DNA of 56,202 nucleotides from positions 1-56,202 of the forward strand of contig CAIMKX010000048.1 in the NCBI GenBank assembly GCA_903842025.1, read 5' to 3'. Shown piece after piece: positions 6,069 to 34,418 of the stretch. Position 1 is the first letter of the stretch. Each line of letters opens with the position of its first letter. The notes below the pieces were generated by a model that saw only the letters and a list, made by a program, of their open reading frames with translations, was not told the origin of the DNA and searched no databases. The stretch comes from an uncultured bacterium. GTDB lineage: Bacteria > Patescibacteriota > Minisyncoccia > Phycocordibacterales > PALSA-1337. The translations under genes were made by a program, and so were the position numbers.

Positions 6069-7973
6069 TCAAATCTCTAGCATCTTGAGCAAGGCTGACA
6101 TTTTGACCGTGGCGACTCCAATGACACTGTCGGCCGCGCCGTAATACATGTAGGCGATTGGGCCTTTAACCACCAGGCCGCAAGGGAAAACGACATTGGC
6201 CACGATGCCTTTGTGCTCATATTCAGTCTCGGGCTCGAAAAGCGGAACCGCCGTACGGGCTTTGACGATCGTTGGGTCGAGAAGATCGAGAAGGACGGCA
6301 CCGACCCTATATGTAGTGCTCCAGGAAACACCGTGATAGAGGAGAAGCCAGCCGGCCTTGGTCTTGACGGGAGGCGCGGATATGCCGACTTTCCCGCCAT
6401 CCCACATGCCGCGTCTCGGCGCGATGATTTCGATGCTCTGGGTAATCTTTTCCTTGGAAAAATCCAACGATGACAAGAAGTCCGCGCAGACGCTTTCGTT
6501 CACGCGATGGAAGATCATATAGCCATCCTTGATCTTCTCGGGAAGGATGCAGGAATCCTTGTTGGGTATGCCGGCTGGCGTAATGGCTTCCGGGGAGCTC
6601 CAGGAGCTCCAGCGTTTCTTGACGAATTCTGAAGTGGTGATGGAACTGACGGCCACGCGCGGGGTCGTGCCGTCGTAGCCCGTGTAGGTCATGTAAAGCT
6701 TCTTATCGATCTCCACCAGGCGCGGGTCCTCACAGCCGCAATTGGAATTGGAACCATTGGCGTTCAATTCAAACGAGGCTCTCGGAAAATAAACCGGTTT
6801 GTCCAGTCTGACGTCTATCGAAAAGCCGTCCGATGTCGAGGCGTATCCCAAGGTGGAGACGTTGTCAGAGGAAACAGCGCGGTAAAGCAGGTGCGTCGTG
6901 CCGTTAATTCCGATGGCCGCCGGATTGATCGTCCCGCGAGCTTCCCAACCCATTCCCGGCCGGGGAGTGATGATCGGATTGCCGGGGAATCTCGTGACGT
7001 AGGATTTGTTTTTTTCAACCAGACTGCCAAGCAGGTTGTCGAGTGGGATCGTCGCCATGGCACAATGAGTATCCGCGCCGCCGTAGTAAACTTCCAGGTG
7101 TTCATTCCTGATCAGGGCGCCGGAAGGGAATATGACGTGGCCGACATTGCCGACATTCTCGTAATAGGCATCAGGAGCCATGAACGGCCCCTTGGTCCGC
7201 CCGATGATATGCCGAGGATTATCTCGATCAAGCAGAAGGACTTCTATGCCGAAAACTTGGCCGGACTGGCCGTAGCGCTGGATGTGGGAATAAACCACCA
7301 AATAGCCCTTGTCTGTCTTGACCGGCGCGGCTCCAAGCTCGATGTGATCATCCGGTAATCTGCGTATATGAAGTTTGTGGGCGTCGACGTTCTCTGTCCA
7401 GGCGTTCCAATATTCCGGCGACCAGATGTCTTCAGGACGGTCAAATTCGGCATAGCAGATATCCGAAGGTTTGCGGTCGGTGTTGATGGTGAGAAGGGCG
7501 GCCATTTTGCCATTGATCTTTTCCGGAAACATACCCATAGCCTTGGCGTTGAAAGGCGTGACCAAATGCTTTTCGGTTATCGTCTCCAGATCCTTGCTCA
7601 AAGCCACTGCCACCTTGATGGTATCGACGGAAAAAGGATAGCCGCCCAAAGCGGTGTAGAAAATGTAATACGTGTCACCAACCTTGGTGACACGCGGGTC
7701 TTCACATCCGAAATAGTCGAACTCTCGGTCCGGTCTTATCAGAACCTTCCTGTTCTCGAAGTGAAAGCCATCGGTCGAATCAGCCCGGGCAATGACGGAA
7801 GTGCTGATATGGGGATCGCGCAGCATGTCAGGCTCGGACATCGCCCGATAGACCATGACGGTTTTTTTGCCTTGAACGATCGGACAACCGTTGAAGGCCG
7901 CCGCGGCCTCCCAGGGATGCTCCTTGACCGGCGAGAGAAGGGGATTGTGCTCTGATCTGGTGAGTGTGAACAT
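6069..7973 (-). CDS. Tandem double GH130-like (beta-mannoside phosphorylase family) protein
   Basis: 634 aa with two repeated modules. Each carries GCEDPR (GCEDPRVTKVGDTYYIFYTA and GCEDPRLVEIDKKLYMTYTGYDG) and YYGAAD/YYGGAD-type C-terminal motifs. Confidence 0.7.
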   Translation of the reverse strand: MFTLTRSEHNPLLSPVKEHPWEAAAAFNGCPIVQGKKTVMVYRAMSEPDMLRDPHISTSVIARADSTDGFHFENRKVLIRPDREFDYFGCEDPRVTKVGDTYYIFYTALGGYPFSVDTIKVAVALSKDLETITEKHLVTPFNAKAMGMFPEKINGKMAALLTINTDRKPSDICYAEFDRPEDIWSPEYWNAWTENVDAHKLHIRRLPDDHIELGAAPVKTDKGYLVVYSHIQRYGQSGQVFGIEVLLLDRDNPRHIIGRTKGPFMAPDAYYENVGNVGHVIFPSGALIRNEHLEVYYGGADTHCAMATIPLDNLLGSLVEKNKSYVTRFPGNPIITPRPGMGWEARGTINPAAIGINGTTHLLYRAVSSDNVSTLGYASTSDGFSIDVRLDKPVYFPRASFELNANGSNSNCGCEDPRLVEIDKKLYMTYTGYDGTTPRVAVSSITTSEFVKKRWSSWSSPEAITPAGIPNKDSCILPEKIKDGYMIFHRVNESVCADFLSSLDFSKEKITQSIEIIAPRRGMWDGGKVGISAPPVKTKAGWLLLYHGVSWSTTYRVGAVLLDLLDPTIVKARTAVPLFEPETEYEHKGIVANVVFPCGLVVKGPIAYMYYGAADSVIGVATVKMSALLKMLEI

Positions 7974-10250: not shown

Positions 10251-11462
10251 ATGAATGTCGAGGACAAGAAGTTCATATACATCCTGATCGGACTGCCGGT
10301 CATAATTTTTGCTCTCTTCCTGGGGATCTACATCGGGGAAAAACAATCCTCAGGTTCAGCGGAAACCGCCTGGACGCCGTCGGCGGCCATTACCCAAGAA
10401 CAATTCGCGCCGTTCTGGAAAGTCTGGCAGGTTTTGAACGACAAGTTCGTCACGGCCGCCAGCACGACCGATCAGGCCAAGATCTATGGTGCCATTCAGG
10501 GGTTGGCCGCCTCATACGGCGATCCTTACACGATCTTCTTTCCGCCGGTCGAGTCCAAGATGTTTCAGGAGGACATTGCCGGAGATTTTGGCGGAGTCGG
10601 CATGGAGATTGCCGTCAAGGACAAACAGCTCCAGGTCGTCTCGCCGATAAAAGGCAGTCCGGCTGACTTGGTCGGCGTCAAAGCCGGCGATTTCATAGTC
10701 TCGATCAACGGTACCTCTACGGTCGGCATGGGCAGTGACGTGGCCGTCAAGCTTATCCGCGGACCCAAGGGAACGGAAGTCAAAATTTCATTCCTGGCTG
10801 TCGGAGCCACCAAGCCCGTAGTCAAGACTATCGTCCGCGATACCATCCAGATACCGACCATCGACACTACGACCAAACCAGGCGGCATATCGGTCATCTC
10901 CCTTTATAGCTTTACCGCCCAATCGCCCAATCTGTTTCGTGACGCTCTTCGCTCATTCGTCATTTCCGGCAACCACAAACTGATCCTCGATCTGCGTCGC
11001 AATCCCGGCGGATATCTGGACGCCGCCTGGGACATGGCCTCCTGGTTCTTGCCCGCCGGCCAGGTCGTCGTTACCGAGGATTTCGGCAAGAATGGCCCGC
11101 CGAACATTTATCGCAGTAAGGGCTACAACATTTTCAACAAGAATCTCCAAATGATGATCCTGGTCGACAACGGTTCGGCTTCAGCCGCTGAAATCTTGGC
11201 CGGAGCGCTTTCCGAGCACGGCGTGGCCAAGCTGGTCGGCGTCAAAACCTTTGGTAAAGGTTCTGTCCAGGAATTAGTGCCGATCACTTCGGATACATCC
11301 TTGAAAGTCACCATAGCTCGCTGGCTGACGCCAAATGGCCACAACTTGTCTCATGACGGGCTTGAGCCGGATTACAAAGTGGAGATTACGGATAAGGACA
11401 CGGCGGCCAAAGTCGATCCTCAGATGAACAAGGCCGTGGAGTTATTACAAGCGTTGCCGTAA
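10251..11462 (+). CDS. Carboxyl-terminal processing protease (S41) with a PDZ domain
   Basis: 403 aa. N-terminal TM, PDZ-like GSPADLVGVKAGDFIVSING, and S41 motifs RRNPGGYLD, GSASAAEILAGAL and FGKGSVQ. Confidence 0.85.
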   Translation: MNVEDKKFIYILIGLPVIIFALFLGIYIGEKQSSGSAETAWTPSAAITQEQFAPFWKVWQVLNDKFVTAASTTDQAKIYGAIQGLAASYGDPYTIFFPPVESKMFQEDIAGDFGGVGMEIAVKDKQLQVVSPIKGSPADLVGVKAGDFIVSINGTSTVGMGSDVAVKLIRGPKGTEVKISFLAVGATKPVVKTIVRDTIQIPTIDTTTKPGGISVISLYSFTAQSPNLFRDALRSFVISGNHKLILDLRRNPGGYLDAAWDMASWFLPAGQVVVTEDFGKNGPPNIYRSKGYNIFNKNLQMMILVDNGSASAAEILAGALSEHGVAKLVGVKTFGKGSVQELVPITSDTSLKVTIARWLTPNGHNLSHDGLEPDYKVEITDKDTAAKVDPQMNKAVELLQALP

Positions 11463-12253: not shown

Positions 12254-12466
12254 TCATTTTGCCTTGAAGAATGGACGTACCCAGATTGTCTCCGCTCCCG
12301 GCTCAATTTCGAGACCAGGGCATGGACAGAGTTCCCATAACCCGCCGGTTGAATCATATACATCCGATGGTTCCAACTTTTCTCCTGGAATTAATCTCAC
12401 GCCGACGATTTCACGGTTGCTTTTTGGGTGTCGAATCTTCTCGATCAAACCTACTGGTGAATTCAT
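12254..12466 (-). CDS. Hypothetical small protein (70 aa)
   Basis: The ORF is bracketed by two minus-strand terminators (12523-12544 upstream, 12198-12225 downstream). A purine-rich stretch gagaaagaagaaat precedes the ATG. No recognisable motif. Confidence 0.35.
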   Translation of the reverse strand: MNSPVGLIEKIRHPKSNREIVGVRLIPGEKLEPSDVYDSTGGLWELCPCPGLEIEPGAETIWVRPFFKAK

Positions 12467-12522
12467 ATTTCTTCTTTCTCATTTAATCAAGTGTGCCTCT
12501 AGAGATTTCTAACATAATCAAC

Positions 12523-14352: not shown

Positions 14353-14527
14353 CAATATTCTAAATTCTCGTGGAGCAGATATATTTTGGATAGACATATA
14401 GACATAAAGAGGGGAGTTCTGTAATCATTAGCGGCAGCGCTAATCTTCTGTATTGAAGCAATGTCGCACAATAGAAACTTATACGACACAAAGGGAAATT
14501 TACGAATCTTTTCTTATGGAAAAGTTA

Positions 14528-23257: not shown

Positions 23258-23385
23258 TGTGATAAAGCCTTTCTATTTAAAACATTACATGAATGTTAGT
23301 AATATGTCTAGAACACAATAAATAAAGAATAATAGCTCAATGTTTGCTAGGAAATAGCTAAAGTATGCTATAGTAGGGGTCATTA

Positions 23386-23412
23386 GAAAACGCCGGCCTG
23401 TACGGCGTTTTC
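23386..23412. terminator. Bidirectional rho-independent terminator
   Basis: aaaacgccg-gcctgta-cggcgtttt, with A/T runs on both sides. Confidence 0.75.
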
Positions 23413-23433
23413 CTTTGTCTAAAGTTTATATTG

Positions 23434-24054
23434 CTATTTCACCAAACACACCTGATTATGCATATTCCAGATAAGATCTGATACGACGAATGAGTTTTCA
23501 GCGTTACTTGTTAACAGATTACCGATGATTCTTTTATATTCGATCAAACTATCCATTTGGGCTTCTTGTGCAGTTCTGCCTTTGATCAGCGAGAGTGGTA
23601 CCTGATTTGAAGTTTCAAAAAATGGTTTAGCATATTCATCTTTTAATGGTTCTGTGACGAGAGCTTTATCTGTCCAGAATCTGAATAATTCACTGTAACC
23701 AATGAAAGCTTTGCAACCCTCTTTTATCGCTTGTGGCCCGAGAGCTTTACCGGAATCGCATGAGCGCATATAGACGATCTTGTCCTTGAGGAGGTATGAA
23801 TTTTCACCTGATACTATGAGAGGTTCTTCGTCATGTCCAGTAACACAGACATCATTTCCGTGTCCATTGAAAATGGCAATTTCGGGATTTTGCTTTTCAA
23901 GATAGCTTTCCACAAGCTTACGCGAAGCTTTATCTTTTTCCAAATCAAAAACCTTGCCGATTCTGCGTTTTGCTTCTTTAACGATTTCTTCACTCCAATG
24001 ATAGAAATAGTGAGTGACTGATTCGTATCTGGGACGAGTGATTAGTAGTGACAT
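23434..24054 (-). CDS. Minimal clan-CD-like (caspase/legumain-like) putative cysteine protease fold protein
   Basis: 206 aa. A hydrophobic strand followed by His-Gly (IAIFNGHGND), and a second hydrophobic strand followed by Cys (IVYMRSCDSGK; compare legumain E-A-C-E-S-G). This spacing and order is typical of the clan CD His/Cys dyad. By-eye inference only. Confidence 0.45.
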   Translation of the reverse strand: MSLLITRPRYESVTHYFYHWSEEIVKEAKRRIGKVFDLEKDKASRKLVESYLEKQNPEIAIFNGHGNDVCVTGHDEEPLIVSGENSYLLKDKIVYMRSCDSGKALGPQAIKEGCKAFIGYSELFRFWTDKALVTEPLKDEYAKPFFETSNQVPLSLIKGRTAQEAQMDSLIEYKRIIGNLLTSNAENSFVVSDLIWNMHNQVCLVK

Positions 24055-24056
24055 AA

Positions 24057-24293
24057 TTATGCGACAGGTAAATCTCGAAGCGATCGGAGGAAGAATAACT
24101 GCGACTCAACAAGCTTCTTGCCGACCTCGGTTTGCTTTTTAACTTCTTCGATTAGTGAATCAACTGACATTGGCTCATTGTCTCCACCAACAGAGAGATT
24201 GGCATTCGAAGGTATAGTCTTCAAACGAGCAACAACCAAATTGATAATTTCTTGGTTTAATTCTTTTGAATTGTTAGTTATAGTTTTGCTCAT
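24057..24293 (-). CDS. Hypothetical small protein (78 aa), paralog of 24297-24491
   Basis: Shares a P-x-[ST]-x(11)-TE[VL]GKK[LI][VL]E block with the upstream 64-aa ORF. Only a 2-3 nt gap to each neighbouring gene. Confidence 0.55.
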   Translation of the reverse strand: MSKTITNNSKELNQEIINLVVARLKTIPSNANLSVGGDNEPMSVDSLIEEVKKQTEVGKKLVESQLFFLRSLRDLPVA

Positions 24294-24296
24294 AAT

Positions 24297-24491
24297 TTAT
24301 TCAGTAGGTATGAATTTAAGTTCAACGAGTTTCTCAAGTATCTTTTTACCAAGCTCAGTGTCAGCATTAATCTCTCTGTAAGCGACTTCCCACGTAATAG
24401 GACCACCTTGATTTTCACCCAAGTCTAATACTATCTCCTTGCGAATGTTCATAGGCAGATTAGCGTAGAATTTGAAAAATTTATCTTTCAT
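24297..24491 (-). CDS. Hypothetical small protein (64 aa), first gene of the 3-gene operon
   Basis: The ORF is preceded by an extended -10 promoter. Paralogous to the 78-aa ORF. Confidence 0.55.
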   Translation of the reverse strand: MKDKFFKFYANLPMNIRKEIVLDLGENQGGPITWEVAYREINADTELGKKILEKLVELKFIPTE

Positions 24492-24537
24492 AATTGATTG
24501 CTATTAGTATACTCCACTTTGTCTATAATTCAAAGAG

Positions 24538-24566
24538 ATTATACCATACATATAGACGAGCAATGG
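24538..24566 (-). promoter_or_regulatory. Extended -10 promoter for the 24491->23434 operon
   Basis: The minus strand reads TGGTATAAT (TGn-TATAAT), with the -10 hexamer at 24543-24538, about 47 nt upstream of the ATG. The -35 is weak. Confidence 0.4.
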
Positions 24567-24586
24567 TAGCATAAAGTTTCGTAAAG

Positions 24587-24611
24587 AAAAGGACGTGCGA
24601 AACGTCCTTTT
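24587..24611. terminator. Bidirectional terminator-like hairpin
   Basis: aaaaggacg-tgcgaa-acgtcctttt. Confidence 0.6.
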
Positions 24612-24654
24612 CGGGTCTAGTGATTATAGATTAGCACATATTTATAATTCATAC

Positions 24655-24839
24655 GATGCTCTGTGCAGGAGGCGAGGATTTGACGAGGGTCAGGGGTCGG
24701 ATAGCCCTGTATTTTCCATTTTTTAATTACTCGTATAGTCACCTCGCAAGATCGTCCCGTGGACAAGCACACCACTCGTCCCGGCCCAACTTTAAGTGTG
24801 ATAAGCGGTTACTATTTCGCCACTCCTGCACGGAGCATC
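24655..24839 (+). ncRNA. Unclassified structured RNA (~185 nt) closed by a 17-bp terminal helix
   Basis: gatgctctgtgcaggag (24655-24671) pairs with ctcctgcacggagcatc (24823-24839). The single non-Watson-Crick position is G-U only on the plus strand. Further helices: gcgagg/cctcgc, caggg/ccctg, gtcc/ggac, cacac/gtgtg. It is a GC-rich island in AT-rich surroundings, and translation of the overlapping ORF looks non-protein-like. Confidence 0.55.
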
Positions 24840-24858
24840 TTATGAAATTGTAAAAGAT

Positions 24859-25719
24859 CTATAGATACCTTTGAGCGTTAGCCAGCATTTCGTTCTTGTC
24901 GAAATTCAAATACATCAAGGCCGAATATGGACTAACGTGGCCTAGCATCATCTGAATATCTTTGAGATCGGCCCCGCTTGCCTTCATGCGGTGAGCTTTG
25001 GCATGTCGGAACATGTGCGGATGGATACGAGTTACGATGCCGGCTTCAGCGGCGATCTCTCTGGTCCAGCGTTCTACTGTTCTAGGTGTTATGCGTCCAC
25101 GGCCTTTATGATCGAGCGAAAGAAACAAATTTGGCTTTTGATTGAGGCAGATTCTACTACCGAGCCAACGAAGCAAGGTATCGTGATGAAAATCTTTGCC
25201 CCACATAATCCAGCGAGTATTCTTATTCTTCTTGTTCTCAATCGAGGTAAAGTTTTCGGTAGAAGATATTTGATTAACATTAAGATCACAAAGCTCGCCG
25301 ACACGAACACCTGTATCACGAAGAAGATGCAATATAGTGAGCTTTTGCAGATCATTTGTTTCCCACGGATTTAGGGTGGCGCACATTGCCTTGAAATCTT
25401 CATCACTCACACCTATACGAGGCTTTTTGGCGTATCTCGGTTCTTGAATGAGGAATGGATTGACCGATGATTCTTGAGTCGAATTGAGATAGCGGAAAAA
25501 ATTTTTCATGATCCGGCAGGAAAATGCTACAGTCGGCGGATTACATTTGGCAGAGAGGTGATGATTGAATTCGACGATGTCGCGATCGGTATATTCCTTC
25601 GTATCCTTATCTCTAAAATTACATAGGCGACGCAGGTATGGCTGATATATTTCTGCAGCCCGAGGACTGCGGATTACTTTCCAATCAGTATAATTTCTAA
25701 TTGCTTGCTGAATAGTCAT
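24859..25719 (-). CDS. Tyrosine recombinase / phage integrase family
   Basis: 286 aa. RDTGVRVGEL (box I Arg), HPHMFRHAKAHRM (HxxR), LGHVSPYSALMYL (His...Tyr). Confidence 0.85.
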   Translation of the reverse strand: MTIQQAIRNYTDWKVIRSPRAAEIYQPYLRRLCNFRDKDTKEYTDRDIVEFNHHLSAKCNPPTVAFSCRIMKNFFRYLNSTQESSVNPFLIQEPRYAKKPRIGVSDEDFKAMCATLNPWETNDLQKLTILHLLRDTGVRVGELCDLNVNQISSTENFTSIENKKNKNTRWIMWGKDFHHDTLLRWLGSRICLNQKPNLFLSLDHKGRGRITPRTVERWTREIAAEAGIVTRIHPHMFRHAKAHRMKASGADLKDIQMMLGHVSPYSALMYLNFDKNEMLANAQRYL

Positions 25720-25759
25720 GTGATTATTTTGTTATTTGTTAATTGATAATTCAGATAAA

Positions 25760-26557
25760 TTATTTGATCCTCGTATACCTTTTATAGACAGTCCAACCAG
25801 TCCATTTATTGAAGGGAAGTATGCAAGTTTCTTCGAGCCTATATTCGATGGAATCAGAACAGGTGAAATCGAGATCAGAGGGCGGGTTACGGATGGTTAT
25901 GGGTTTGAGAAGACCACGAGAAGTGAAGTAACATTTTTCGTTAAACAACCTTGCATCAACTACGCCTTTTTGAAGATATTTCGAGACATATGCACCTATC
26001 GATTGAATGTGTTGAATGGCATTTATTTTTATGAATCCGTGTGACCAAATTTCTGCTAACTCGTCATTGTTTATGTATGGCAGATTGAAGAAGACGGCGT
26101 GATAGTGAACAGCTCCTCGTTTCTGGAATTCGACGACAGAGACATATTTGAGCGCGTGTCCAATGTGATAATTCAGTCTCATCATGAATTTTCGCCACAT
26201 TTCGTTTGCTTCCTTGAGCCCGGTTATGTTTTCGGCAAAGGTGAACGTTACGAATTTATCGCTATATTCAGGATACTGACCGGAATTACAGGAGATTAGA
26301 CGGCGTATATGCTTCCTAGCGCGTGAGATTGAGAATGGACGACGAATACCTAGATTTCGCTTACCGACACGCTTCTTGCGACGATTTCGTGACTTCAACT
26401 GACCACCGAAATGGATGTCTTTTTCGAATTCATAGACTTCCTTGACGGGACCGGAGATGACAGCCTTGTATCTCGAGAAATCAACGCCCCAATGTATTTT
26501 TCTCAATTCGTCGAAAGCCCGACTTAGATCGTCTGCCGACGGAATCTGATTAGCCAT
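25760..26557 (-). CDS. Rolling-circle replication initiator (HUH endonuclease superfamily)
   Basis: 265 aa. Motif I-like KFVTFTF, HUH motif GAVHYHAVFF, motif III Tyr region GAYVSKYLQK. Confidence 0.7.
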   Translation of the reverse strand: MANQIPSADDLSRAFDELRKIHWGVDFSRYKAVISGPVKEVYEFEKDIHFGGQLKSRNRRKKRVGKRNLGIRRPFSISRARKHIRRLISCNSGQYPEYSDKFVTFTFAENITGLKEANEMWRKFMMRLNYHIGHALKYVSVVEFQKRGAVHYHAVFFNLPYINNDELAEIWSHGFIKINAIQHIQSIGAYVSKYLQKGVVDARLFNEKCYFTSRGLLKPITIRNPPSDLDFTCSDSIEYRLEETCILPFNKWTGWTVYKRYTRIK

Positions 26558-26618
26558 ACATATTTAATTCTAATAAATCTGATTAAGTGTGAGAGAGGTC
26601 GAGTCTAGAAACAACACT

Positions 26619-27398
26619 CTACCTCTTGAATTTTATAGCCGATATCCGGGCAGCTAAAGCAGCCCAGATCTCGGCGACTCGTAGCACATTTACTTCATAA
26701 GTTTCAGTTTTGATTGTTGTTGTACCTATCATATTTCCAATTTCACCCTTGATACCGACAGTCTCTTTGGTGTTGTACATTTTGAAGTATTTTGCTTCGC
26801 CCCAATATAGTCTCCTCGATAGCCGTTTTTCTTCATTGACTGTCTCGTCACCGGAGAGATCATATTCATCGCGGGCAAAAAGAGTGATAAATGGAATCAT
26901 GAATTTTTCGCAATGATAGAATACATTGGTCATTCCTCGCATGACAGCATGGACGGAAGTTGGGCGTTGAGTGGTGTAGAAGATCGAACGATCGAATTTG
27001 CGTGTTTGCAGAATATTCAAGCGTTGTGACATGGGCATTTTGGACATCTGATACGAATCGAACAGCACATATGCTTCATCTATAGCGACAATGCAATCTC
27101 GAAGTTTTCCGAACTCGTTATGCCAGTTTTCATCCGTTGGCATCTTACGGAGGTTAGTAGCCGGATACTTGATGAACTTTTTCTTTAGGCCAATCGCTCC
27201 CCAGAATATGGCGAAGGGATTTTGCCTTTGATCATAACCATCCCAATGGATAGTGAAATTTGTGTAGACCACATGCCCGTTATTCAAGAGCCGAAGAAGA
27301 TCTCGAACCATAGCGTATGTTTTACCTTGGCCTAGCCTACCGTAGTAGCAGTAAATGCCGTGCTCGATATCCATTCTTTTTGTCTTTATTTTGGACAT
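26619..27398 (-). CDS. Zot / pI-like P-loop NTPase (inovirus morphogenesis ATPase family)
   Basis: 259 aa. Walker A GRLGQGKTY near the N-terminus and Walker B IVAIDEA. Size and position are typical of a Zot-like N-terminal domain. Confidence 0.7.
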   Translation of the reverse strand: MSKIKTKRMDIEHGIYCYYGRLGQGKTYAMVRDLLRLLNNGHVVYTNFTIHWDGYDQRQNPFAIFWGAIGLKKKFIKYPATNLRKMPTDENWHNEFGKLRDCIVAIDEAYVLFDSYQMSKMPMSQRLNILQTRKFDRSIFYTTQRPTSVHAVMRGMTNVFYHCEKFMIPFITLFARDEYDLSGDETVNEEKRLSRRLYWGEAKYFKMYNTKETVGIKGEIGNMIGTTTIKTETYEVNVLRVAEIWAALAARISAIKFKR

Positions 27399-27433
27399 GA
27401 TGTTTAAATTAATTTGATAATATCGACCACCGA

Positions 27434-27700
27434 TTAACCGATTTCACTCTCGCGGATATAGGTAGAAATAAACTTTTCTGTAACATAACCTTTTGCGAAC
27501 ACATCTTCTATTTCGTTCGAAATAAGCTCAACGAGGACAGGGTTACCGATTTTATCCTCAAATCTATCAATAACCTCGAGGAGGTGATCATATAGATCCG
27601 GATCGATTCGGGCAGGCCACCAGTCTTTCCATATCTCTAAATTTCGCTCACATTCTTTTTTCGCTATCTCTTTATTCAGCATGATGATTTTGTTATTCAT
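27434..27700 (-). CDS. Hypothetical phage-module protein (88 aa)
   Basis: ORF whose ATG overlaps the stop of the upstream 67-aa ORF (ATGA). Confidence 0.5.
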   Translation of the reverse strand: MNNKIIMLNKEIAKKECERNLEIWKDWWPARIDPDLYDHLLEVIDRFEDKIGNPVLVELISNEIEDVFAKGYVTEKFISTYIRESEIG

Positions 27701-27900
27701 TTTTTTAATTTATTTAATCTTAATAATGACCACACTCTGCTTTGCATTATCTGAAGTAAGAAAAAATGATATGCAAACTGTTGTTGGAAATTCAGCTCGA
27801 AACCATGGCAATGACCGTCTTTTAGATGAGCGTGTATATCCTTTAAAATCGGGTCAGATTTCAGTAATGTTTCTATAATATTTTGATTGATTGTTTTCAT
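27697..27900 (-). CDS. Hypothetical phage-module protein (67 aa)
   Basis: ORF in the same co-oriented string. Confidence 0.45.
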   Translation of the reverse strand: MKTINQNIIETLLKSDPILKDIHAHLKDGHCHGFELNFQQQFAYHFFLLQIMQSRVWSLLRLNKLKK

Positions 27901-27935
27901 GTGATTATTTGTAATTAGTTGACTGCTAATATTTT

Positions 27936-28196
27936 TTAACCAGACCCTCGCAACTTATTGATAACCCAATTCACGAGCTGATATGTTTTGTATCCAAGCT
28001 CTATCCCGACACCGGCGAGCATAAATGTCATAGCTGTTCCGAGGAAAGGGAAGATGGTGGCCATCGCGCGGTAGTAGCCGAAGATCGTCGTAATCGTAGA
28101 ATCCAAATTGAGAGGAAGGGAAGTGACCTTTGGTAGAAAGCTCAATGCCCACGACATCGACTCCATAATGAATGAGATGAGAAGTGATGTAATCAT
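27936..28196 (-). CDS. Small multi-TM protein (pVI-like position)
   Basis: 86 aa with 2-3 hydrophobic segments. The start overlaps the stop of the 462-aa gene (ATGA). Confidence 0.5.
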   Translation of the reverse strand: MITSLLISFIMESMSWALSFLPKVTSLPLNLDSTITTIFGYYRAMATIFPFLGTAMTFMLAGVGIELGYKTYQLVNWVINKLRGSG

Positions 28197-29581
28197 GGTT
28201 TGATTTTGTTAAAGGCGAATTTCCATAGCCAGAAAAAGAAGCCAGCACCCATGAGTAGACTGATCATGTTGCTGATTGACGTCCACGCATTACCCCAATA
28301 ACCGTGAGACGTCGAGGATGCCATCAAGGACCAATCAATGAATGTGATTGTTTTGCCTTTGAAGATTTGCGTAGAGGATGCGTTGTAGAGAGGGTTTGAG
28401 TTGTTCGGAAAAGTAATCGAAAGGTTTGCGCTCGATAGGGATGTCGTAGAAGCAGTAGAATAACCTGAAATGTCATTTGCAATGAGGAATATATAACCCC
28501 ATGGAGCTTTATATTTCAGATCATTATACTGCTCCTGAAAACGGAGGCGAGTATACATATCCGGGACGAAGAGTAGATAGATTACATTTTTGAACACGGT
28601 GCCGACAGCACAGCCGATACCAGATGCCGTGAGCATCGAATCGCAATCGCTTAAGCCGGTCGTGATCGTTATCGGCGTAGAAGTAGCAGGGAAGTACAGG
28701 CTCAATGACGACAGCGGGGTGATTGTCTTATTGACTATGAATTCGCTTGAAGTGGCAACATAAACGTTCGGAGAGTTATCAAACAAGATAGACATGTGAT
28801 AACGGCCATCGGCCAATGCCCCGGTTGTAGTTGAGTAAGTATAGTTTCCACTTACAGTTGGAACAGTACCGAAATTATATTCGGAGTAATTACCGTTATC
28901 GGTATCGAGTAGCGTGATTAGCAAATTCGGAGTAGATGATCCAATATCGCTATCTATGTAATATGATCCGGACAAAGTGACAGGGGAGCTGATCGGCGTA
29001 ACAGTATATGCAGGTAAATATGAAGTGATCTGCGTTCCAATATAGCTAGGGTATCCGTCGGTAACCGCAAAATATATGTCGGATATGCCAGAACATGCTC
29101 CGCCGCCGGTATAGTGATAGCACGCACCGTCTGCCCATTTATCAGTCGGCGATCCGTGAACTTTTTGAGTTTCTCCGTTACCCGGTGCGTAAAAATATAT
29201 AGTTACTCGCTTGCCGGTAACTGAAACAGCAGGCGACCATGTGGTTATAAGGTGTGTTGGGGTTGAATTAAGCGCCCAAGAGTTGCTGTATTTCACATTG
29301 GACATATCACCTATACAGGTGGCGGCATTTTCTGAACTAGGGCAGATATGAACCCTGTAGCGGGTGTTATTGATCATGTATCCACTCATGATCACATCTA
29401 CTGCGCCCATATTACCGACTAGATTCGTGCCGAGATCTTGGTATGTAGTACCCGAATTGGCATTGACCTGCACATACCCTGAAGAATCAGTTTGTGCGCC
29501 GAGAGTCATGGCGTATGTACCGGCTGGCAAAAACAGCAGGCTCATAAGAAAGATAAAACTGTAGTAGTAATATTTCTTCAT
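28193..29581 (-). CDS. Secreted Ser/Thr/Gly/Tyr-rich protein with a C-terminal TM anchor (pIII-like adsorption/minor coat candidate)
   Basis: 462 aa. Signal peptide MKKYYYYSFIFLMSLLFLPAGTYA and C-terminal LLMGAGFFFWLWKFAFNKIKP anchor. Confidence 0.55.
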   Translation of the reverse strand: MKKYYYYSFIFLMSLLFLPAGTYAMTLGAQTDSSGYVQVNANSGTTYQDLGTNLVGNMGAVDVIMSGYMINNTRYRVHICPSSENAATCIGDMSNVKYSNSWALNSTPTHLITTWSPAVSVTGKRVTIYFYAPGNGETQKVHGSPTDKWADGACYHYTGGGACSGISDIYFAVTDGYPSYIGTQITSYLPAYTVTPISSPVTLSGSYYIDSDIGSSTPNLLITLLDTDNGNYSEYNFGTVPTVSGNYTYSTTTGALADGRYHMSILFDNSPNVYVATSSEFIVNKTITPLSSLSLYFPATSTPITITTGLSDCDSMLTASGIGCAVGTVFKNVIYLLFVPDMYTRLRFQEQYNDLKYKAPWGYIFLIANDISGYSTASTTSLSSANLSITFPNNSNPLYNASSTQIFKGKTITFIDWSLMASSTSHGYWGNAWTSISNMISLLMGAGFFFWLWKFAFNKIKP

Positions 29582-29615
29582 GTGGTTATTAATAAATTGA
29601 TAATCGCACTGGGTT

Positions 29616-29783
29616 GGGTCAGTCTAGTCATAGCTAGAGCGTAATTTTTCCGAAATTTTGTAGTCAAGGTCGCTTCGCGATGTCCTACGCATTTTTTGTT
29701 TTATAAGGTGTAAAGACATCGCGAAGCTCTCTTGACAAAAAATTTCCTGAAAAATTATTGCTCTGCTATGACAAGCCTGACCC
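29616..29783. repeat. ~168-nt imperfect long hairpin (candidate ssDNA origin / packaging signal)
   Basis: Left arm gggtcagtctagtcatagctagagcgtaatttttccgaaattttgtagtcaaggtcgcttcgcgatgtc. It pairs along ~70 nt with the right arm gacatcgcgaagctctcttgac...gctatgacaagcctgaccc, with several mismatches and bulges. Confidence 0.85.
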
Positions 29784-29797
29784 TCCTACTAACCTGA

Positions 29798-29867
29798 TCG
29801 CGGGGACCGGAATCGAACCGGATGTCCGTAGAAAAGTAGCGTTCTATAGAGTTACCAAACCCCGCGG
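29798..29867 (-). other. Degenerate tRNA-like element (acceptor stem plus T arm intact, no canonical D or anticodon arms)
   Basis: The minus strand reads CGCGGGG...TCCGG-TTCGATT-CCGGT-CCCCGCG-A. The middle forms TAGAA/TTCTA with an 8-nt loop instead of a canonical anticodon arm. No CCA. Confidence 0.5.
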
Positions 29868-29980
29868 CTACAAAAGACCGGCTGTGTCGATAGTTCAGAA
29901 GGCCTTTTGGCTCAATTGGAGAGGACTAGCCTGATTCCACTTGAAGAGAGCGGAGAGACAGCGGCCTTACGCCGCGCGGA

Positions 29981-30166
29981 TCATTTGATACCGCCCACGT
30001 ATCTCTTTGCCTTATGCCAGAGCATAAAGACTGCGCCGAGGAGCAACATGGCTGGAACAACATACGGCAGGACGTCCAATACAAGAGTATTGACCTGACC
30101 GATGGTGTTATCCCAGATGAGATGCACACTGGCCAAAGAAATAGTGGTAGATGCAAGTGAGGTCAC
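29981..30166 (-). CDS. Major-coat-protein-like mini TM protein (pVIII-like)
   Basis: 61 aa: N-terminal leader-like segment, hydrophobic core VVPAMLLLGAVFMLW, basic tail HKAKRYVGGIK. A short hairpin follows the stop. Confidence 0.55.
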   Translation of the reverse strand: MTSLASTTISLASVHLIWDNTIGQVNTLVLDVLPYVVPAMLLLGAVFMLWHKAKRYVGGIK

Positions 30167-30237
30167 TATTTTAGCTACTTAAATTATGCTGATAATATCG
30201 ACCACGAATCGACAACTGGGCTTATTGACATTGCCAG

Positions 30238-30345
30238 TTAGCCGAAGTGGAAGAGTATCCGGAAAAGGCCGATCAGCATGTACGCGAACATTCCCAAGAC
30301 AACTGCGGACAGATACACTTGATATGCGTCAGAAAGGATATTCAT
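30238..30345 (-). CDS. 35-aa mini TM protein (below the ORF-track cutoff)
   Basis: Reads MNILSDAYQVYLSAVVLGMFAYMLIGLFRILFHFG*. Its ATG overlaps the stop of the upstream ORF (ATGA at 30345-30342). Confidence 0.45.
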   Translation of the reverse strand: MNILSDAYQVYLSAVVLGMFAYMLIGLFRILFHFG

Positions 30346-30506
30346 GAAAGGAAACGGAGAAGTTTAACGCCTTGTAATATCATCCAGTAGACGAATATCG
30401 GGACACCGATAGCGAGGGGCATGAGGAAGAAAGTCCACCAGAAAAGATCCACATAGGATGCGTTATCGATTGCTGGCTGTAATATCTGCATAAGTACTGG
30501 ATTCAT
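30342..30506 (-). CDS. 54-aa mini TM protein (internal start of the 109-aa ORF-track entry)
   Basis: MNPVLMQILQPAIDNASYVDLFWWTFFLMPLAIGVPIFVYWMILQGVKLLRFLS. The ATG at 30506 overlaps the stop of the 80-aa ORF (ATGA). Confidence 0.45.
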   Translation of the reverse strand: MNPVLMQILQPAIDNASYVDLFWWTFFLMPLAIGVPIFVYWMILQGVKLLRFLS

Positions 30507-30745
30507 AGTTTTGATTTCATTCCTAACGCTCCGAACAAAGTTGCGAAGAAAAATACTGCGAGAAAGAAAATAATTATTCCTAGACCGAAGATCATAGTGC
30601 CATCGTCGCGCACTGTAATAGGGGAGGCGAGAGACATGACTGGTTGTGTTGACGACGAGGTAACCGTACATGTTTGCTCAATCATTAGAGGCGGCTCATC
30701 GGTGTTATACAGGTTGTCACAGTGCCAGGAATTGATCATATTCAT
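30503..30745 (-). CDS. 80-aa protein with a C-terminal TM segment and short basic tail
   Basis: ...MIFGLGIIIFFLAVFFFATLFGALGMKSKL. The ATG overlaps the stop of the 60-aa ORF (ATGA). Confidence 0.5.
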   Translation of the reverse strand: MNMINSWHCDNLYNTDEPPLMIEQTCTVTSSSTQPVMSLASPITVRDDGTMIFGLGIIIFFLAVFFFATLFGALGMKSKL

Positions 30746-30924
30746 TCGTTATTCTTAATCTCATAGATCAGAACGACATGATCCATGTTTATAATGACCT
30801 GAGCGCCGTTATCCCGAACGATGGTGATGAAGTTACCGTCTATATCCTCGACAACACCTTGGAAGCAACTACTATTACCGTAGTATTTATTATCGAGAGC
30901 AAATATGTATCTATTTTTAAGCAT
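30742..30924 (-). CDS. 60-aa soluble beta-rich protein (occupies the position of an inovirus ssDNA-binding protein; speculative)
   Basis: ORF in the coupled string. No TM segment. Confidence 0.4.
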   Translation of the reverse strand: MLKNRYIFALDNKYYGNSSCFQGVVEDIDGNFITIVRDNGAQVIINMDHVVLIYEIKNNE

Positions 30925-30928
30925 GGTT

Positions 30929-31105
30929 TTAGGCTAACGAATAATTAAACATTCCTAACTTGATAGGCGACTCAACTCTCGGATTCTTCTCCATCCACGA
31001 ACTGCACTTTACGCAACAATTACCTTGTTCTCGATAACGCTTCTCGGTCATCTCTAACTTCTCTCGACAAACAGGGGACACATGGTAGACACAGTGATCT
31101 TTCAT
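30929..31105 (-). CDS. 58-aa Cys-rich (zinc-ribbon-like) protein, first gene of the string (below the ORF-track cutoff)
   Basis: Hand translation: MKDHCVYHVSPVCREKLEMTEKRYREQGNCCVKCSSWMEKNPRVESPIKLGMFNYSLA*. Cys at positions 5, 13, 30, 31 and 34. Confidence 0.45.
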   Translation of the reverse strand: MKDHCVYHVSPVCREKLEMTEKRYREQGNCCVKCSSWMEKNPRVESPIKLGMFNYSLA

Positions 31106-31332
31106 AGGTTTTATGAATTAACTGATAAACCCGTAGACAAAAACAACGAAGTGGCTAAGACTTCGTTGCTTCTGGTATACGAGATACTTCTGCTTACCGG
31201 AGTGACCGGCAGGGCAGAAACTATTTCATTGGCACAAACTAGCTAACCTTTCCAAGGATAGATTCGTAGGTGGGGCAGTGGCTTAACTGCTCAATAGTCT
31301 ATGTCGCACAATATATGTTTAGTACATATCCC

Positions 31333-31626: not shown

Positions 31627-32925
31627 CTATAGGAATGAAAGCGGATTGAGATAAGCGCTGAAGTCGGCGATCGGTATTATTGCGCCTTTGCAGTTGACGC
31701 TGTTGTCGAATTTTTTGATCTCGACGCCTTGGGTGGCATAAACGCCGAAGTGAAGATGTGGGCCAGTAGAGTATCCGGTATTGCCGCTATAAGCGATCTG
31801 CTGGCCAGTGGCGACTTCCTGGCCAATACTCACAGTTTGCAAGGATAAGTGGGCATAGAGAGTCGACAGGCCATTAGAGTGCTTGATCATGATCCATTGG
31901 CCGTATGAATAGCAACCCCTAACCAGATCCGTATTCCCTTCTCCAATAATAACGCCGGATAAGGCAGCTTTGACAGGCGTTCCTATTGAAGCACGGAAGT
32001 CGACTCCAGTATGGCCTTTGCCGTTGTAAATCTGCGGATTGGCGGTGGCAAAAGGTGTGTTGCCGAAATATTGGGTGATGAATATCTTATCAAGCGGCCA
32101 AGACAAGACACCCGATCCAGTATGCGGTATTGAAGTCGGATTGACCAGAATATGGAGCTGGGATTCATAGGAGTTGATTTCGTTTTGAAAAGCCGCTTCT
32201 TGAGCTTTCTTTTGGGCTAGAAGTTGTTTATAGGAAGCCTCGGACTGGTTGGTCTCCTTCAATAAAGCCGTCTGGGCTTTGGTCGTGGACAGGACGATGG
32301 CCCGCTGATCATTGAGTTGATTGTTCAGAGTAACCAGGTCTGTTTTGGCCTTTTGGCTGGATTTTTGATTGGCTTCGAGATCGCTTTTGAACTTTTCCAA
32401 AGAATTGATGTGGCCGTAAATATTGGCTTGAATAGTCCCAAGTCTTTCCAGTGAATCGAGAGTCTCCGAAATTGATTGGCCTGATAATATGATAGCCGGC
32501 ACGGATTGTTCGCTCATTTCATTCACAGTGAGAAATGCCTGCCTGATGATCCTCCGATCATCGGCTATGGAATTTTCCTGATTGGCAATATTAGAGCCAA
32601 GCCTCTCGATCTCAAGATTACGGGCGGCGATCTTATCTTGTGTCAAGGATATATTGGCTTCAAGTTTCTTCTTGGTCAGAGTTAAGGACTTTATCGTCGC
32701 CGTCAGAGTTAATGACTGCGAACCCAATGTATCAAGCTGTTTCTGGTAATCGGCGATTTCCTTCTCAAGATTGGCTATATCTTGATTACGCTGGTCGATT
32801 TTGGATTGAATTTCGGAGGCGGTTTGGGCGTGAGTCACAGGAGAGGTAAGAGGTAGGAGGTAGGAGATAAGAATTATAACGAGCAAAAGAAAGCCGTGTT
32901 TGTAATTGACTTTTTCATTTTTCAT
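31627..32925 (-). CDS. M23 family metallopeptidase with an N-terminal coiled coil (EnvC-like architecture)
   Basis: 432 aa. Signal peptide, long heptad-rich region, and M23 motifs HTGVDF and GNTGYSTGPHLHFGVY. Confidence 0.85.
   Translation of the reverse strand: MKNEKVNYKHGFLLLVIILISYLLPLTSPVTHAQTASEIQSKIDQRNQDIANLEKEIADYQKQLDTLGSQSLTLTATIKSLTLTKKKLEANISLTQDKIAARNLEIERLGSNIANQENSIADDRRIIRQAFLTVNEMSEQSVPAIILSGQSISETLDSLERLGTIQANIYGHINSLEKFKSDLEANQKSSQKAKTDLVTLNNQLNDQRAIVLSTTKAQTALLKETNQSEASYKQLLAQKKAQEAAFQNEINSYESQLHILVNPTSIPHTGSGVLSWPLDKIFITQYFGNTPFATANPQIYNGKGHTGVDFRASIGTPVKAALSGVIIGEGNTDLVRGCYSYGQWIMIKHSNGLSTLYAHLSLQTVSIGQEVATGQQIAYSGNTGYSTGPHLHFGVYATQGVEIKKFDNSVNCKGAIIPIADFSAYLNPLSFL
32844..32871. 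repeat. Heptamer array aggtaag/aggtagg/aggtagg/agataag (inside the M23 signal-peptide codons)
   Basis: Four tandem 7-mers, complementary to the array at 32936-32984. Confidence 0.85.
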
Positions 32926-32935
32926 AGATACTTTT

Positions 32936-32984
32936 CTTACCTCTTACCTCTTACCTCTTACCTCTTACTTCTTACCTCTTACTT
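32936..32984. repeat. Heptamer tandem array (cttacct x5 and cttactt x2, seven units in total)
   Basis: Seven consecutive 7-nt units. The array overlaps the gltX stop codon (32979-32981) and lies 11 nt upstream of the M23 start codon. Confidence 0.9.
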
Positions 32985-34418
32985 CAACTTCCCTATCGCT
33001 TTTTCAATTCTGGCCAAGGATTCAACCTTACCAAGTATGAAAGCCGACATGAAAGGATCTGGAGATTTTTCCTGGCCAGTCAGAGCGACCCGAAGAGGCC
33101 AGAGGACGTCTCCCCTGCCTTTGTCCTCGGCATATTTCCAGAGTGACTCTTTGATCGTTTCGGCGGTGAACTTATCGGTATCAATCGAAGTTAATGTTTC
33201 CTTGGCAAAAGCTAAATGTTTGGCTGCCTCTTCCCTGCTAGGATTTTTCTTCCAAAGAAGCATGTCAGCCAGATAATCAGATAATTCTCTTACAAAACCA
33301 AGTTCACTTCCCCTTTCGAACATTGGCCCAATTTCTCCAAAAGTCGAAACTTTTTCTCTGAGAAGTTGTCTGAGCCGTGCGTATTCATCTTTCATATCTG
33401 CCAACCATTCAGGGACAAAATTTTTGGAATGTTGGTCGAATTCGACGTCTGATAATTTATTGATATATTCCTTGTTGAACCAATTGAGCTTTTCGATGTC
33501 GAAAACAGCGCCACCCTTTTGTATCCTTTCAAGGGTAAACTCACTGATCAGTTCCGGGACATTCATGACCTCCTTATCTCTGGTCGGATGCCAGCCAAGT
33601 AAAGTCAAATAATTGAACAATGCTTCAGGCATATATCCTTCAGCTCTATACTCCAAAACATCTTTGGCTCCATCACGTTTGCCCAATTTCTTGGTCCTAT
33701 CATCGCGCAGGATCGGCGGTAAAGTAGCGAAAAGCGGAGGTTTAATGCCTAATGCGTCATAAAGGCTAAGGAATCTCGGGGTGCTGGAAATGAATTCATC
33801 TGCTCGAAAGACATGTGTTATACCCATTTCATAATCATCGATTATGTGAGCAAAATTGTAGGTCGGGAAACCGTCGCTCTTGATCAAAACAAAGTCATCC
33901 AAGGCGGCTTCTCCTGCTTCGAGATCGCCCCTTACAATATCATGCCATTTGTATTTCTTTATTTCCGAAACTTTGAGACGGAGAGGCTTAGTCCCATCCC
34001 ATTTTTGAAACGTTTCTGGTCGATGTTCCCGGTAAAGAAAGGGTTTTTTTTCAGCTTCTGCAGTTTTACGAAAAGCTTCAACTTCTTCTTTTGTGTATGG
34101 ATCCGGATAAGCCAAACCTTTCTTTTCTAGTTCCAAGGCATATTTCTTATATATCTCAAGTCTTTCTGACTGGATACAGGAGCCAAAAGGACCTGGTTTA
34201 TCTGGACCATAATTCCAATCAATGCCAAACCAAGAGAGTGCTTCTTTGATATGTTCGACAGATCCTGGCACCAATCTTTCCTGATCCGTGTCTTCAATGC
34301 GTAGAATGAACGTACCATCGTTCTTTTTGACCCAAAGATATGCAAATAGGGCCGTGCGAACACCGCCTATATGCATGAAGCCGGTCGGACTAGGCGCAAA
34401 CCTGGTAATGATTTTCAT
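32979..34418 (-). CDS. gltX: Glutamyl-tRNA synthetase
   Basis: 479 aa. RFAPSPTGFMHIGGVRTALF (HIGH) and KLGKRDG (KMSKS-like). Confidence 0.92.
   Translation of the reverse strand: MKIITRFAPSPTGFMHIGGVRTALFAYLWVKKNDGTFILRIEDTDQERLVPGSVEHIKEALSWFGIDWNYGPDKPGPFGSCIQSERLEIYKKYALELEKKGLAYPDPYTKEEVEAFRKTAEAEKKPFLYREHRPETFQKWDGTKPLRLKVSEIKKYKWHDIVRGDLEAGEAALDDFVLIKSDGFPTYNFAHIIDDYEMGITHVFRADEFISSTPRFLSLYDALGIKPPLFATLPPILRDDRTKKLGKRDGAKDVLEYRAEGYMPEALFNYLTLLGWHPTRDKEVMNVPELISEFTLERIQKGGAVFDIEKLNWFNKEYINKLSDVEFDQHSKNFVPEWLADMKDEYARLRQLLREKVSTFGEIGPMFERGSELGFVRELSDYLADMLLWKKNPSREEAAKHLAFAKETLTSIDTDKFTAETIKESLWKYAEDKGRGDVLWPLRVALTGQEKSPDPFMSAFILGKVESLARIEKAIGKLK

Follow-up and report, generated by a model that had tools for sequence, protein, structure and literature searches.

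Filamentous phages of the Ff/M13 type carry a packaging-signal hairpin together with complementary-strand origin hairpins, and rolling-circle plasmids carry single-strand origins (sso). Folded single-stranded DNA also provides sites for tyrosine recombinases, as in the forked hairpin of the CTX-phi attP(+) site and in the attC sites of integrons. Integration beside structured RNA genes is exemplified by tRNA and tmRNA targets and, reportedly, by the ffs (4.5S RNA) gene, which is said to be a phage attachment site. We analyzed a stretch of 56,202 nucleotides (hereafter the window) from an uncultured bacterium of the Patescibacteriota, in which a structured element occupies positions 24648–24846, a non-coding stretch between the gene of a Xer-like integrase and a variable cargo region. 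We are highly confident that this element is real, phage-borne, structure-constrained and non-coding, and we class it among the structured intergenic elements of filamentous phages, here from a phage–host group that has barely been described. Our literature searches turned up neither this element nor any RNA-guided tyrosine recombinase.

The element resembles the Ff signals and the plasmid sso in being a non-coding, multi-hairpin sequence of 150–200 nt in a rolling-circle, Zot-encoding phage; compensatory change keeps its structure, its orientation to the genes is fixed and foreign (cargo) DNA is tolerated alongside it. It differs from them in that it follows the integrase gene, has no sequence similarity to any deposited phage, shares its phage with a second, stronger hairpin region and is lacking in some relatives. 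By analogy, it may work as the Ff hairpin signals or the plasmid sso do. With the CTX-phi and attC sites it shares a single-stranded DNA phage, a Xer-type recombinase, a long imperfect hairpin of about 150–200 nt and core-like sequences within its fold. However, the integrase here is a product of the phage itself, the prophage contains the element in intact form, and the arm that bears the core is dispensable in one relative (L046; related loci are designated by L numbers). In the CTX-phi and attC sites strand exchange takes place in the stem, whereas here the prophage junctions are not in the stem, and those of the remnants lie in the P4 loop and at the P5/P6 junction. Finally, like the tRNA, tmRNA and ffs attachment sites, it is a structured, RNA-like sequence beside an integrase gene; in contrast to them, it has neither a host-borne copy nor a displaced duplicate, its 5′ part is inherited with the phage, and it is recognized by neither ARAGORN nor Rfam.

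The element belongs to an integrated inovirus-like phage of about 8 kb in a CPR/Patescibacteria host. All of the phage genes lie on the minus strand of the window. The integrase (24859–25719; 286 aa; Pfam Phage_integrase, 6.6e-27; PHROG integrase) is a Xer-like tyrosine recombinase without an arm-binding domain, whose family has just 31 members in a database of 5.8 billion proteins. It is followed by a rolling-circle Rep (25760–26557; Pfam REP_ORF2-G2P, 2.3e-22) and a Zot/pI-like assembly ATPase (26619–27398; Pfam Zot, 4.1e-8), which are the hallmark genes of inoviruses; the closest deposited Rep proteins are also those of inoviruses. The remaining phage module (27434–31315, minus strand) is colinear with L001 and L021 and contains small ORFs, upstream ones included, a 462-aa protein (28193–29581) and a structured intergenic region (29585–29990); the homologous blocks in L001 and L021 span from the element to window position 30740. 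At the right end lie GGATAG (31256–31261) and ATGTCGCACAATATA (31301–31315), and we placed the right boundary by these right-end sequences and by analogy with the L047/L036 block described below, which ends at the ATGTCGCACAATATA motif. The left part (23336–24612, minus strand; left boundary approximate) comprises a promoter-like box with a conserved hairpin (23345–23416), the cargo ORFs (23434–24054, 24057–24293 and 24297–24491) and a terminator-like hairpin (24584–24612). The mobile unit thus delimited spans roughly 23336–31315. The Rep, the Zot/pI ATPase, small ORFs of coat-protein size, the confinement of the genes to one strand and a length within 5–10 kb (6.9 kb for the mobile block) are those of an inovirus. 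No free circular phage was found in IMG/VR or among 24 contigs with one integrase allele; for this reason we infer the phage ends and the packaged strand, which, from gene orientation and by analogy with known inoviruses, would be the minus strand.

Candidate attachment cores, which locate the crossover approximately, are (A)ATAG|GG (23330–23335 and 31256–31261) and the ATGTCGCACAATATA motif at 31301–31315. The model of a single phage predicts a circle junction in which ...ATGTCGCACAATATA is joined to GTATTGACTTTT, and under the small-circle alternative ...CCTTTAATGTCGATAG would be followed by CCCTGTATT. The motif (CC)ATGTCGCACAAT recurs at 31301–31315 and 14461–14475 of the window, at 10892–10919 of L036 and in L026, L031, L034 and L038. 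It is often palindromic (ATGTCGCACAATATACATTGTGCGACAT in L036) and marks the right end of the mobile unit; it also occurs at the phage-free sites L039, L041 and L042 and in unrelated places. This motif has the appearance of an operator, and it may be the true attachment core.

The cargo slot, which runs from the hairpin at 23379–23416 to the element, varies between loci. The window holds three ORFs of no known function (23434–24491), most other loci hold an NYN-domain protein, L006 (7152–10260) holds a DNA methylase with partner genes of restriction-modification, and L005 holds no cargo. The NYN alleles in the slot (8314–8964 in L027) disagree with the integrase tree. A tandem arrangement of a cargo island plus a phage was considered and set aside as less economical than a single phage with a variable cargo slot. 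Within 23345–23416, as well as in L002, L003, L008, L027, L030, L036, L047 and others, a near-consensus promoter-like box on the plus strand (TTGACT-17-TATACT in relatives) points into a T-run hairpin, GTCATTAGAAAACGCCGGCCTGTACGGCGTTTTCC, which is 100% identical in many loci and shows a compensatory change from G–C to A–T in three. Judging from the sequence, the box and hairpin could yield a transcript of ~40 nt or form a bidirectional terminator. This hairpin region and the outer edge of the element have TCATTAGA in common. The second intergenic region (29585–29990) reaches z = −8.9 as minus-strand single-stranded DNA and is composed of a ~190-nt hairpin (about 29600–29790) and a tRNA-like piece with GGTTCGATTCCGG; ARAGORN calls a tRNA-Val at the equivalent of this piece in L001, L021 and L046 and not in the window. 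The P4 region of the element (24685–24705, GAGGGTCAGGGGTCGGATAGC) has an inverted 76% match at 29765–29785, at the base of the long hairpin, and many chance pairs are equally good. Between the M23 peptidase and GluRS genes, 32842–32985 contains several copies of the heptamer TCTTACC and, in inverted orientation, an AGAGGTA-type counterpart; repeats and counterpart combine into an imperfect palindrome of 47 nt.

The two ends of the element, 24655–24671 (GATGCTCTGTGCAGGAG) and 24823–24839 (CTCCTGCACGGAGCATC), form a 17-bp terminal helix with one T–G pair. The initial annotation had drawn this helix, and we find that it lengthens outward by 6–7 pairs (TTCATA(A)/(T)TATGAA) in the window, where 24648–24653 pair with 24841–24846, and in homologs, giving a total of ~24 bp over 24648–24846. 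The minimum free energy of the 185 nt from 24655 to 24839 is −69.8 kcal/mol on the plus strand (z = −4.67) and −70.7 kcal/mol on the minus strand (z = −4.44). On neither strand does any of 200 shuffles fold as well, and the fold is not due to chance. The element had also been described as a GC-rich patch in AT-rich DNA: its GC content is raised, but the contrast is modest, 48% compared with about 40% in the region.

The boundaries of the element, which include the outward extension of the closing helix, follow the conservation among 16 copies, and the covariance model matches 24643–24851 of the window at 243.9 bits. The consensus consists of six helices, namely the closing helix P1, a P2–P3–P4 arm that joins the first ~55 nt to the middle of the element by base pairing, and the P5 and P6 hairpins. 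The left arm of P1 (24655–24671) pairs with the right arm (24823–24839), and the integrase ORF, stop codon included, starts 20 nt beyond the latter, at 24859. The left strands of P2 and P3 (24672–24687) are near-invariant in all copies; P2 pairs GCGAGG (24672–24677) with CCTCGC (24742–24747) and is extended by three pairs (24678–24680 with 24737–24739), and P3 pairs ACGAG (24683–24687) with CTCGT (24730–24734). The P4 hairpin (24691–24709) has the form CAGGG-GTCGGATAG-CCCTG; its loop (24696–24704) looks like a recombination core, and its stem covaries between U–A, A–U and C–G. The P5 hairpin (24757–24784; loop CACACCA) shows the strongest covariation of all of the helices. The conserved junction AACTTTAAGTGTGATAAG and the small P6 hairpin (24805–24807 with 24818–24820) occupy 24788–24820.

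Homologs were collected with the integrase and a 22-nt element pattern as queries and come from CPR/Patescibacteria metagenome contigs; the covariance model identifies 16 distinct copies at 104–269 bits. Fourteen of the 16 share one orientation and lie 9–20 nt downstream of the stop codon that ends a Xer-like integrase gene or a stub of it; the copies L006b and L026 have no integrase alongside. The element adjoins the integrase in every locus where this protein is at least 73% identical, and its conservation is confined to this integrase/Rep/Zot module. Where identity is 70% or less, the element is absent (L007, L043 and L045) or present as an unstructured relic (L044, 68% identical). The 22-mer GCANGAGGCGAGGATTTNNCGA finds nine true loci and four chance matches in 241 million metagenome records and can serve as a marker for locating these prophages. 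L006 contains two full copies of the element 5 kb apart (12258–12474 and 6866–7089). The distal copy lacks an integrase, its closing helix is broken, and ~140 nt further on lies a repeat of CCAAACTTT, the breakpoint sequence of L026; this suggests that the second copy is a decayed tandem element. L026 (63–974) has a truncated copy of the element next to which lies a 303-aa ORF, by eye similar to an insertion-sequence transposase.

The 16 homologs show that the element has been selected to retain a multi-helix single-strand fold composed of P1 (~24 bp), P2–P3–P4, P5 and P6. Standard pairs make up 90.2% of the pair cells, a share attained by 0 of 500 column shuffles (85.0%), and drop to 38–45% when the partners are slid. 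The covariation score is 0.158, compared with 0.086 for shuffled columns (again 0 of 500) and at most 0.069 for slid partners. The internal helices, of which at least four had been proposed from the window sequence, are thereby backed comparatively, with compensatory changes in P1, P4 and P5. P5 keeps the same hairpin with at least five distinct stems (GGAC/GTCC, GGGC/GCCC, GATGAG/CTCATC, TTCAG/CTGAA, CGCCCGTGT/ATGTGGGCG and others), and L047 adds a further G–C to A–U change. P1 occurs as two matched haplotypes, I (GATGCTCTGTGC / GCACGGAGCATC) and II (GACGCTCTAAGC / GCTTAGAACGTC), in which three positions differ on both sides. Helices 2 and 3 are paired in 99% and 93%, respectively, across copies; P2 and P3 hardly vary, and covariation therefore neither backs nor contradicts them. 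P6 is likewise invariant and can give no covariation signal. The unpaired stretches are also highly conserved in sequence. In intact prophages z is about −4 to −6, and the folds are weaker in the decayed remnants L004, L009 and L006b. L046 is a natural short form that lacks the whole P3–P4 arm; it still folds (z = −6.6) in a prophage that otherwise looks intact, with intact int, Rep and Zot.

The element does not correspond to a known RNA. Rfam 15, which covers 6S, SRP, RNase P, tmRNA and Y RNA as well as riboswitches and ribozymes, gave no match to the element in the entire window at gathering thresholds, at E ≤ 10 over 24400–25100, or at E ≤ 5 in three other loci with alpha and beta copies. 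In the window ARAGORN found just tRNA-Glu and tRNA-Ser at 141–452 and nothing at the element, and it found nothing at the element in nine related loci. These searches agree with the initial annotation, in which the sequence had been left unclassified after comparison by eye with tRNA, tmRNA, SRP, RNase P and riboswitches. A likeness by eye to the 5′ end of tmRNA (GGAUUUGAC) or to SRP domain IV was dropped, as the 3′ partners that either would require are missing and no model gives a score. A small protein gene, either the 65-aa ORF on the plus strand or a 52-aa ORF on the minus strand, has open frames in the window in its favor, yet we regard it as practically negligible. The ATG of the 65-aa ORF is missing in seven of the 16 copies, five of which have a stop at codon 3; the frame is broken by 14-nt and other indels of lengths not divisible by three, and beta copies contain internal stops. 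There are no PHROG matches, and the substitutions compensate within helices and show no synonymous pattern. The 65-aa frame is thus not conserved as a protein, and coding potential of the element is ruled out. The element is also not a MITE: inverted ends are present, but there is one copy per locus (two in L006) without flanking duplication, each copy adjoins int except L006b and L026, and the window has no further copy.

The position of an RNA-like sequence next to a convergent integrase gene had been taken as the classic layout of integration into the 3′ end of an RNA gene, and we weighed the corresponding explanation, in which a host ncRNA gene (6S-like, Y-like or similar) is the integration target and the phage replaces part of the gene. 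Besides the resemblance of the layout to tRNA and tmRNA targets, several breakpoints fall within the element, and L027/L031 retain just its 5′ 50 nt where the phage genes are missing. These two loci are syntenic with the window (GluRS–M23–small ORF); they keep the equivalent of window 24640–24704, and the element breaks off right after GGATAG in the P4 loop and passes into right-end-like sequence. L027/L031 were accordingly considered as an empty attachment site, with the element as a host/phage hybrid, or as a host RNA gene split at the P4 loop, the host contributing the 5′ 50 nt and the phage the 3′ 135 nt. The hybrid was overturned by the phage-free loci, the integrase tree, the identity values and the L047/L036 block, and the last three of these also rule out the split gene.

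The phage-free orthologous loci L039, L041 and L042 (GluRS–M23–small ORF) contain no covariance-model match and no 5′ part. In the integrase tree, loci cluster according to the haplotype of both P1 arms and not according to the alpha or beta type of the middle of the element, and a rare variant of the 5′ arm, GCAAGAGG, is common to L047, L005 and L006a. The integrase of L047 is 94–96% identical to those of L005 and L006, whereas the host M23 protein is 51–55% and the 80-aa neighbor 46–48% identical; GluRS, compared with L005 only, is 56% identical. L047 and L036 share one colinear 6.9-kb block (87.6% identity) in the order promoter-like box, conserved hairpin, NYN, element, int, Rep, structural genes and ATGTCGCACAATATA motif, with the whole element internal and unrelated flanks on both sides. 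The phage-free loci, the integrase tree, the contrast in divergence and this block therefore place the element inside the mobile unit. In the 56-kb window no part of 24600–24860 has a second match beyond 10–13-mers at chance level, and the other end of the prophage repeats no part of the element; the duplication of the 3′ ~20 nt that might have been looked for at the other boundary does not exist there. A host-ncRNA target, and with it integration into the 3′ end of an RNA gene, is very unlikely in our judgment: the far end has no duplication, the element is lacking at phage-free orthologous loci, the 5′ arm travels with int across divergent hosts, and a native 3′ part in host context was seen in no copy of any collection scanned. 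Moreover, the L027 remnant (the 5′ 50 nt of the element) fails to fold (z = +0.58), and the element decays in dead prophages. L027/L031, L038/L040, L009, L005, L004 and L006b are decayed derivatives.

The strand on which the fold operates bears on the role of the element. The single G–U pair of P1 had been used to assign the plus strand, and this assignment did not survive the comparison: in a hand tally of 12 copies, P1 has 15 non-standard pairs on the plus strand compared with eight on the minus strand, which slightly favors the latter because most exceptions are A–C on plus and thus G–U on minus. The mean z with RNA parameters is −4.26 for plus and −4.88 for minus, and with DNA parameters the values are −4.4 against −3.9, by which we judged the strands equal. 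On the minus strand a separate promoter is unnecessary, because int transcripts run into the element. Overall, we lean mildly to the minus strand. The main and a serious rival of the reading that we prefer (below) is a new phage ncRNA, on either strand. In its plus-strand form, a stand-alone RNA of a new class would be transcribed convergently with int and act in trans, perhaps controlling lysogeny or serving as antisense against the 3′ end of int; we consider this possible but rather doubtful. It would start at a local promoter (TATAAT at 24643–24648, 6 nt before the helix) or by read-through from the TTGACT-17-TATACT promoter and its hairpin. The window TATAAT is suitably positioned, and L005 has the promoter-like box, the hairpin and the element directly adjoining one another. 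Covariation together with conserved loops and junctions is typical of functional RNA; G–U pairs on the plus strand occur in P5 and P4 of the beta subfamily and in P2 of L006b, and the T–G pair is widespread in P1 haplotype I. However, no conserved promoter lies directly upstream of the plus-strand 5′ end, where the flank 1–2 bases outside the helix differs in at least eight contexts, a terminator hairpin adjoins this end in L005, and the promoter scan called no promoter there despite the TATAAT. The 3′ arm is not followed by a terminator, the P1 exceptions speak for the other strand, and there is no Rfam relative.

We give most weight, at somewhat less than even confidence, to a phage cis-element that is single-stranded on the coding (packaged) strand and serves as a replication or packaging signal or as a 3′-UTR structure of int. 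Such an element would act on the strand that carries all of the phage genes (window minus), both as packaged single-stranded DNA and in the integrase mRNA. Its role would be that of one of the intergenic signals on which all filamentous phages depend, e.g. a complementary-strand origin or a packaging/assembly signal, and it may double as the structured 3′ end of the integrase transcript. Two short core-like sequences within it have acted as deletion junctions in decayed copies. Against a cis-signal, the intergenic region 29585–29990 (z = −8.9) could already provide packaging or origin functions, the relatives L043 and L045 lack the element and L044 has a relic, so that it is not indispensable to the whole family, and the highly conserved unpaired stretches would fit a protein-binding ncRNA as well. 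A recombination module for the Xer-like integrase, i.e. an attP-like or cer/psi-like site with the P4 loop GTCGGATAG and the junction AACTTTAAGTGTGATAAG as cores and the other ~150 bp as accessory DNA, possibly folded as a single strand in the manner of CTX-phi or integron attC, is quite improbable in our estimate. It would account for the location directly beside int, for P4 as an inverted repeat about a 9-nt spacer, as in a core site, and for several junctions: in L027/L031 the element ends precisely at GGATAG, where the right-end module takes over, CCAAACTTT is the site of junctions in L026 and L006, and the beta junction AACATCCTTTAATGTGATAAG resembles the phage right end AACGACCTTTAATGTCGATAG, with the 10-mer CCTTTAATGT and flanking bases in common. 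On the other hand, every lysogen carries the element whole and at an internal position, so integration did not take place within it; L046 lacks the P3–P4 core, yet int, Rep and Zot are intact; and an arm-binding domain is missing from the 286-aa integrase. The free stem covariation of P5 is not accounted for by proteins that bind duplex DNA, and no recombinase is required for deletions between 7–9-nt repeats. The main job of the element is probably not recombination, because the core-bearing P3–P4 arm is dispensable in one apparently intact phage (L046). We think it unlikely, if slightly less so, that the element represents a new class of phage-encoded structured RNA or folded single-stranded DNA that is functionally coupled to the Xer-like integrase. 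It could present the P4 loop GTCGGATAG and the junction ..TTTAAGTGTGATAAG and guide, gate or itself be the recombination substrate, and the variable cargo, which begins right at its outer edge, could be among the DNA exchanged.

For the annotation of integrated elements, these results are a caution that a structured element beside an integrase gene is not necessarily a host RNA gene target; here, comparing the divergence of phage and host genes told the two readings apart. Should the element turn out to be an RNA or a folded DNA that cooperates with the integrase, recombination accessories would gain a new kind. The filamentous phages of CPR/Patescibacteria are almost unstudied, and one such family is now defined by its integrase, Rep, Zot, a swappable cargo slot and conserved non-coding signals, with concrete sequences available for tests of origin, packaging or regulatory function.
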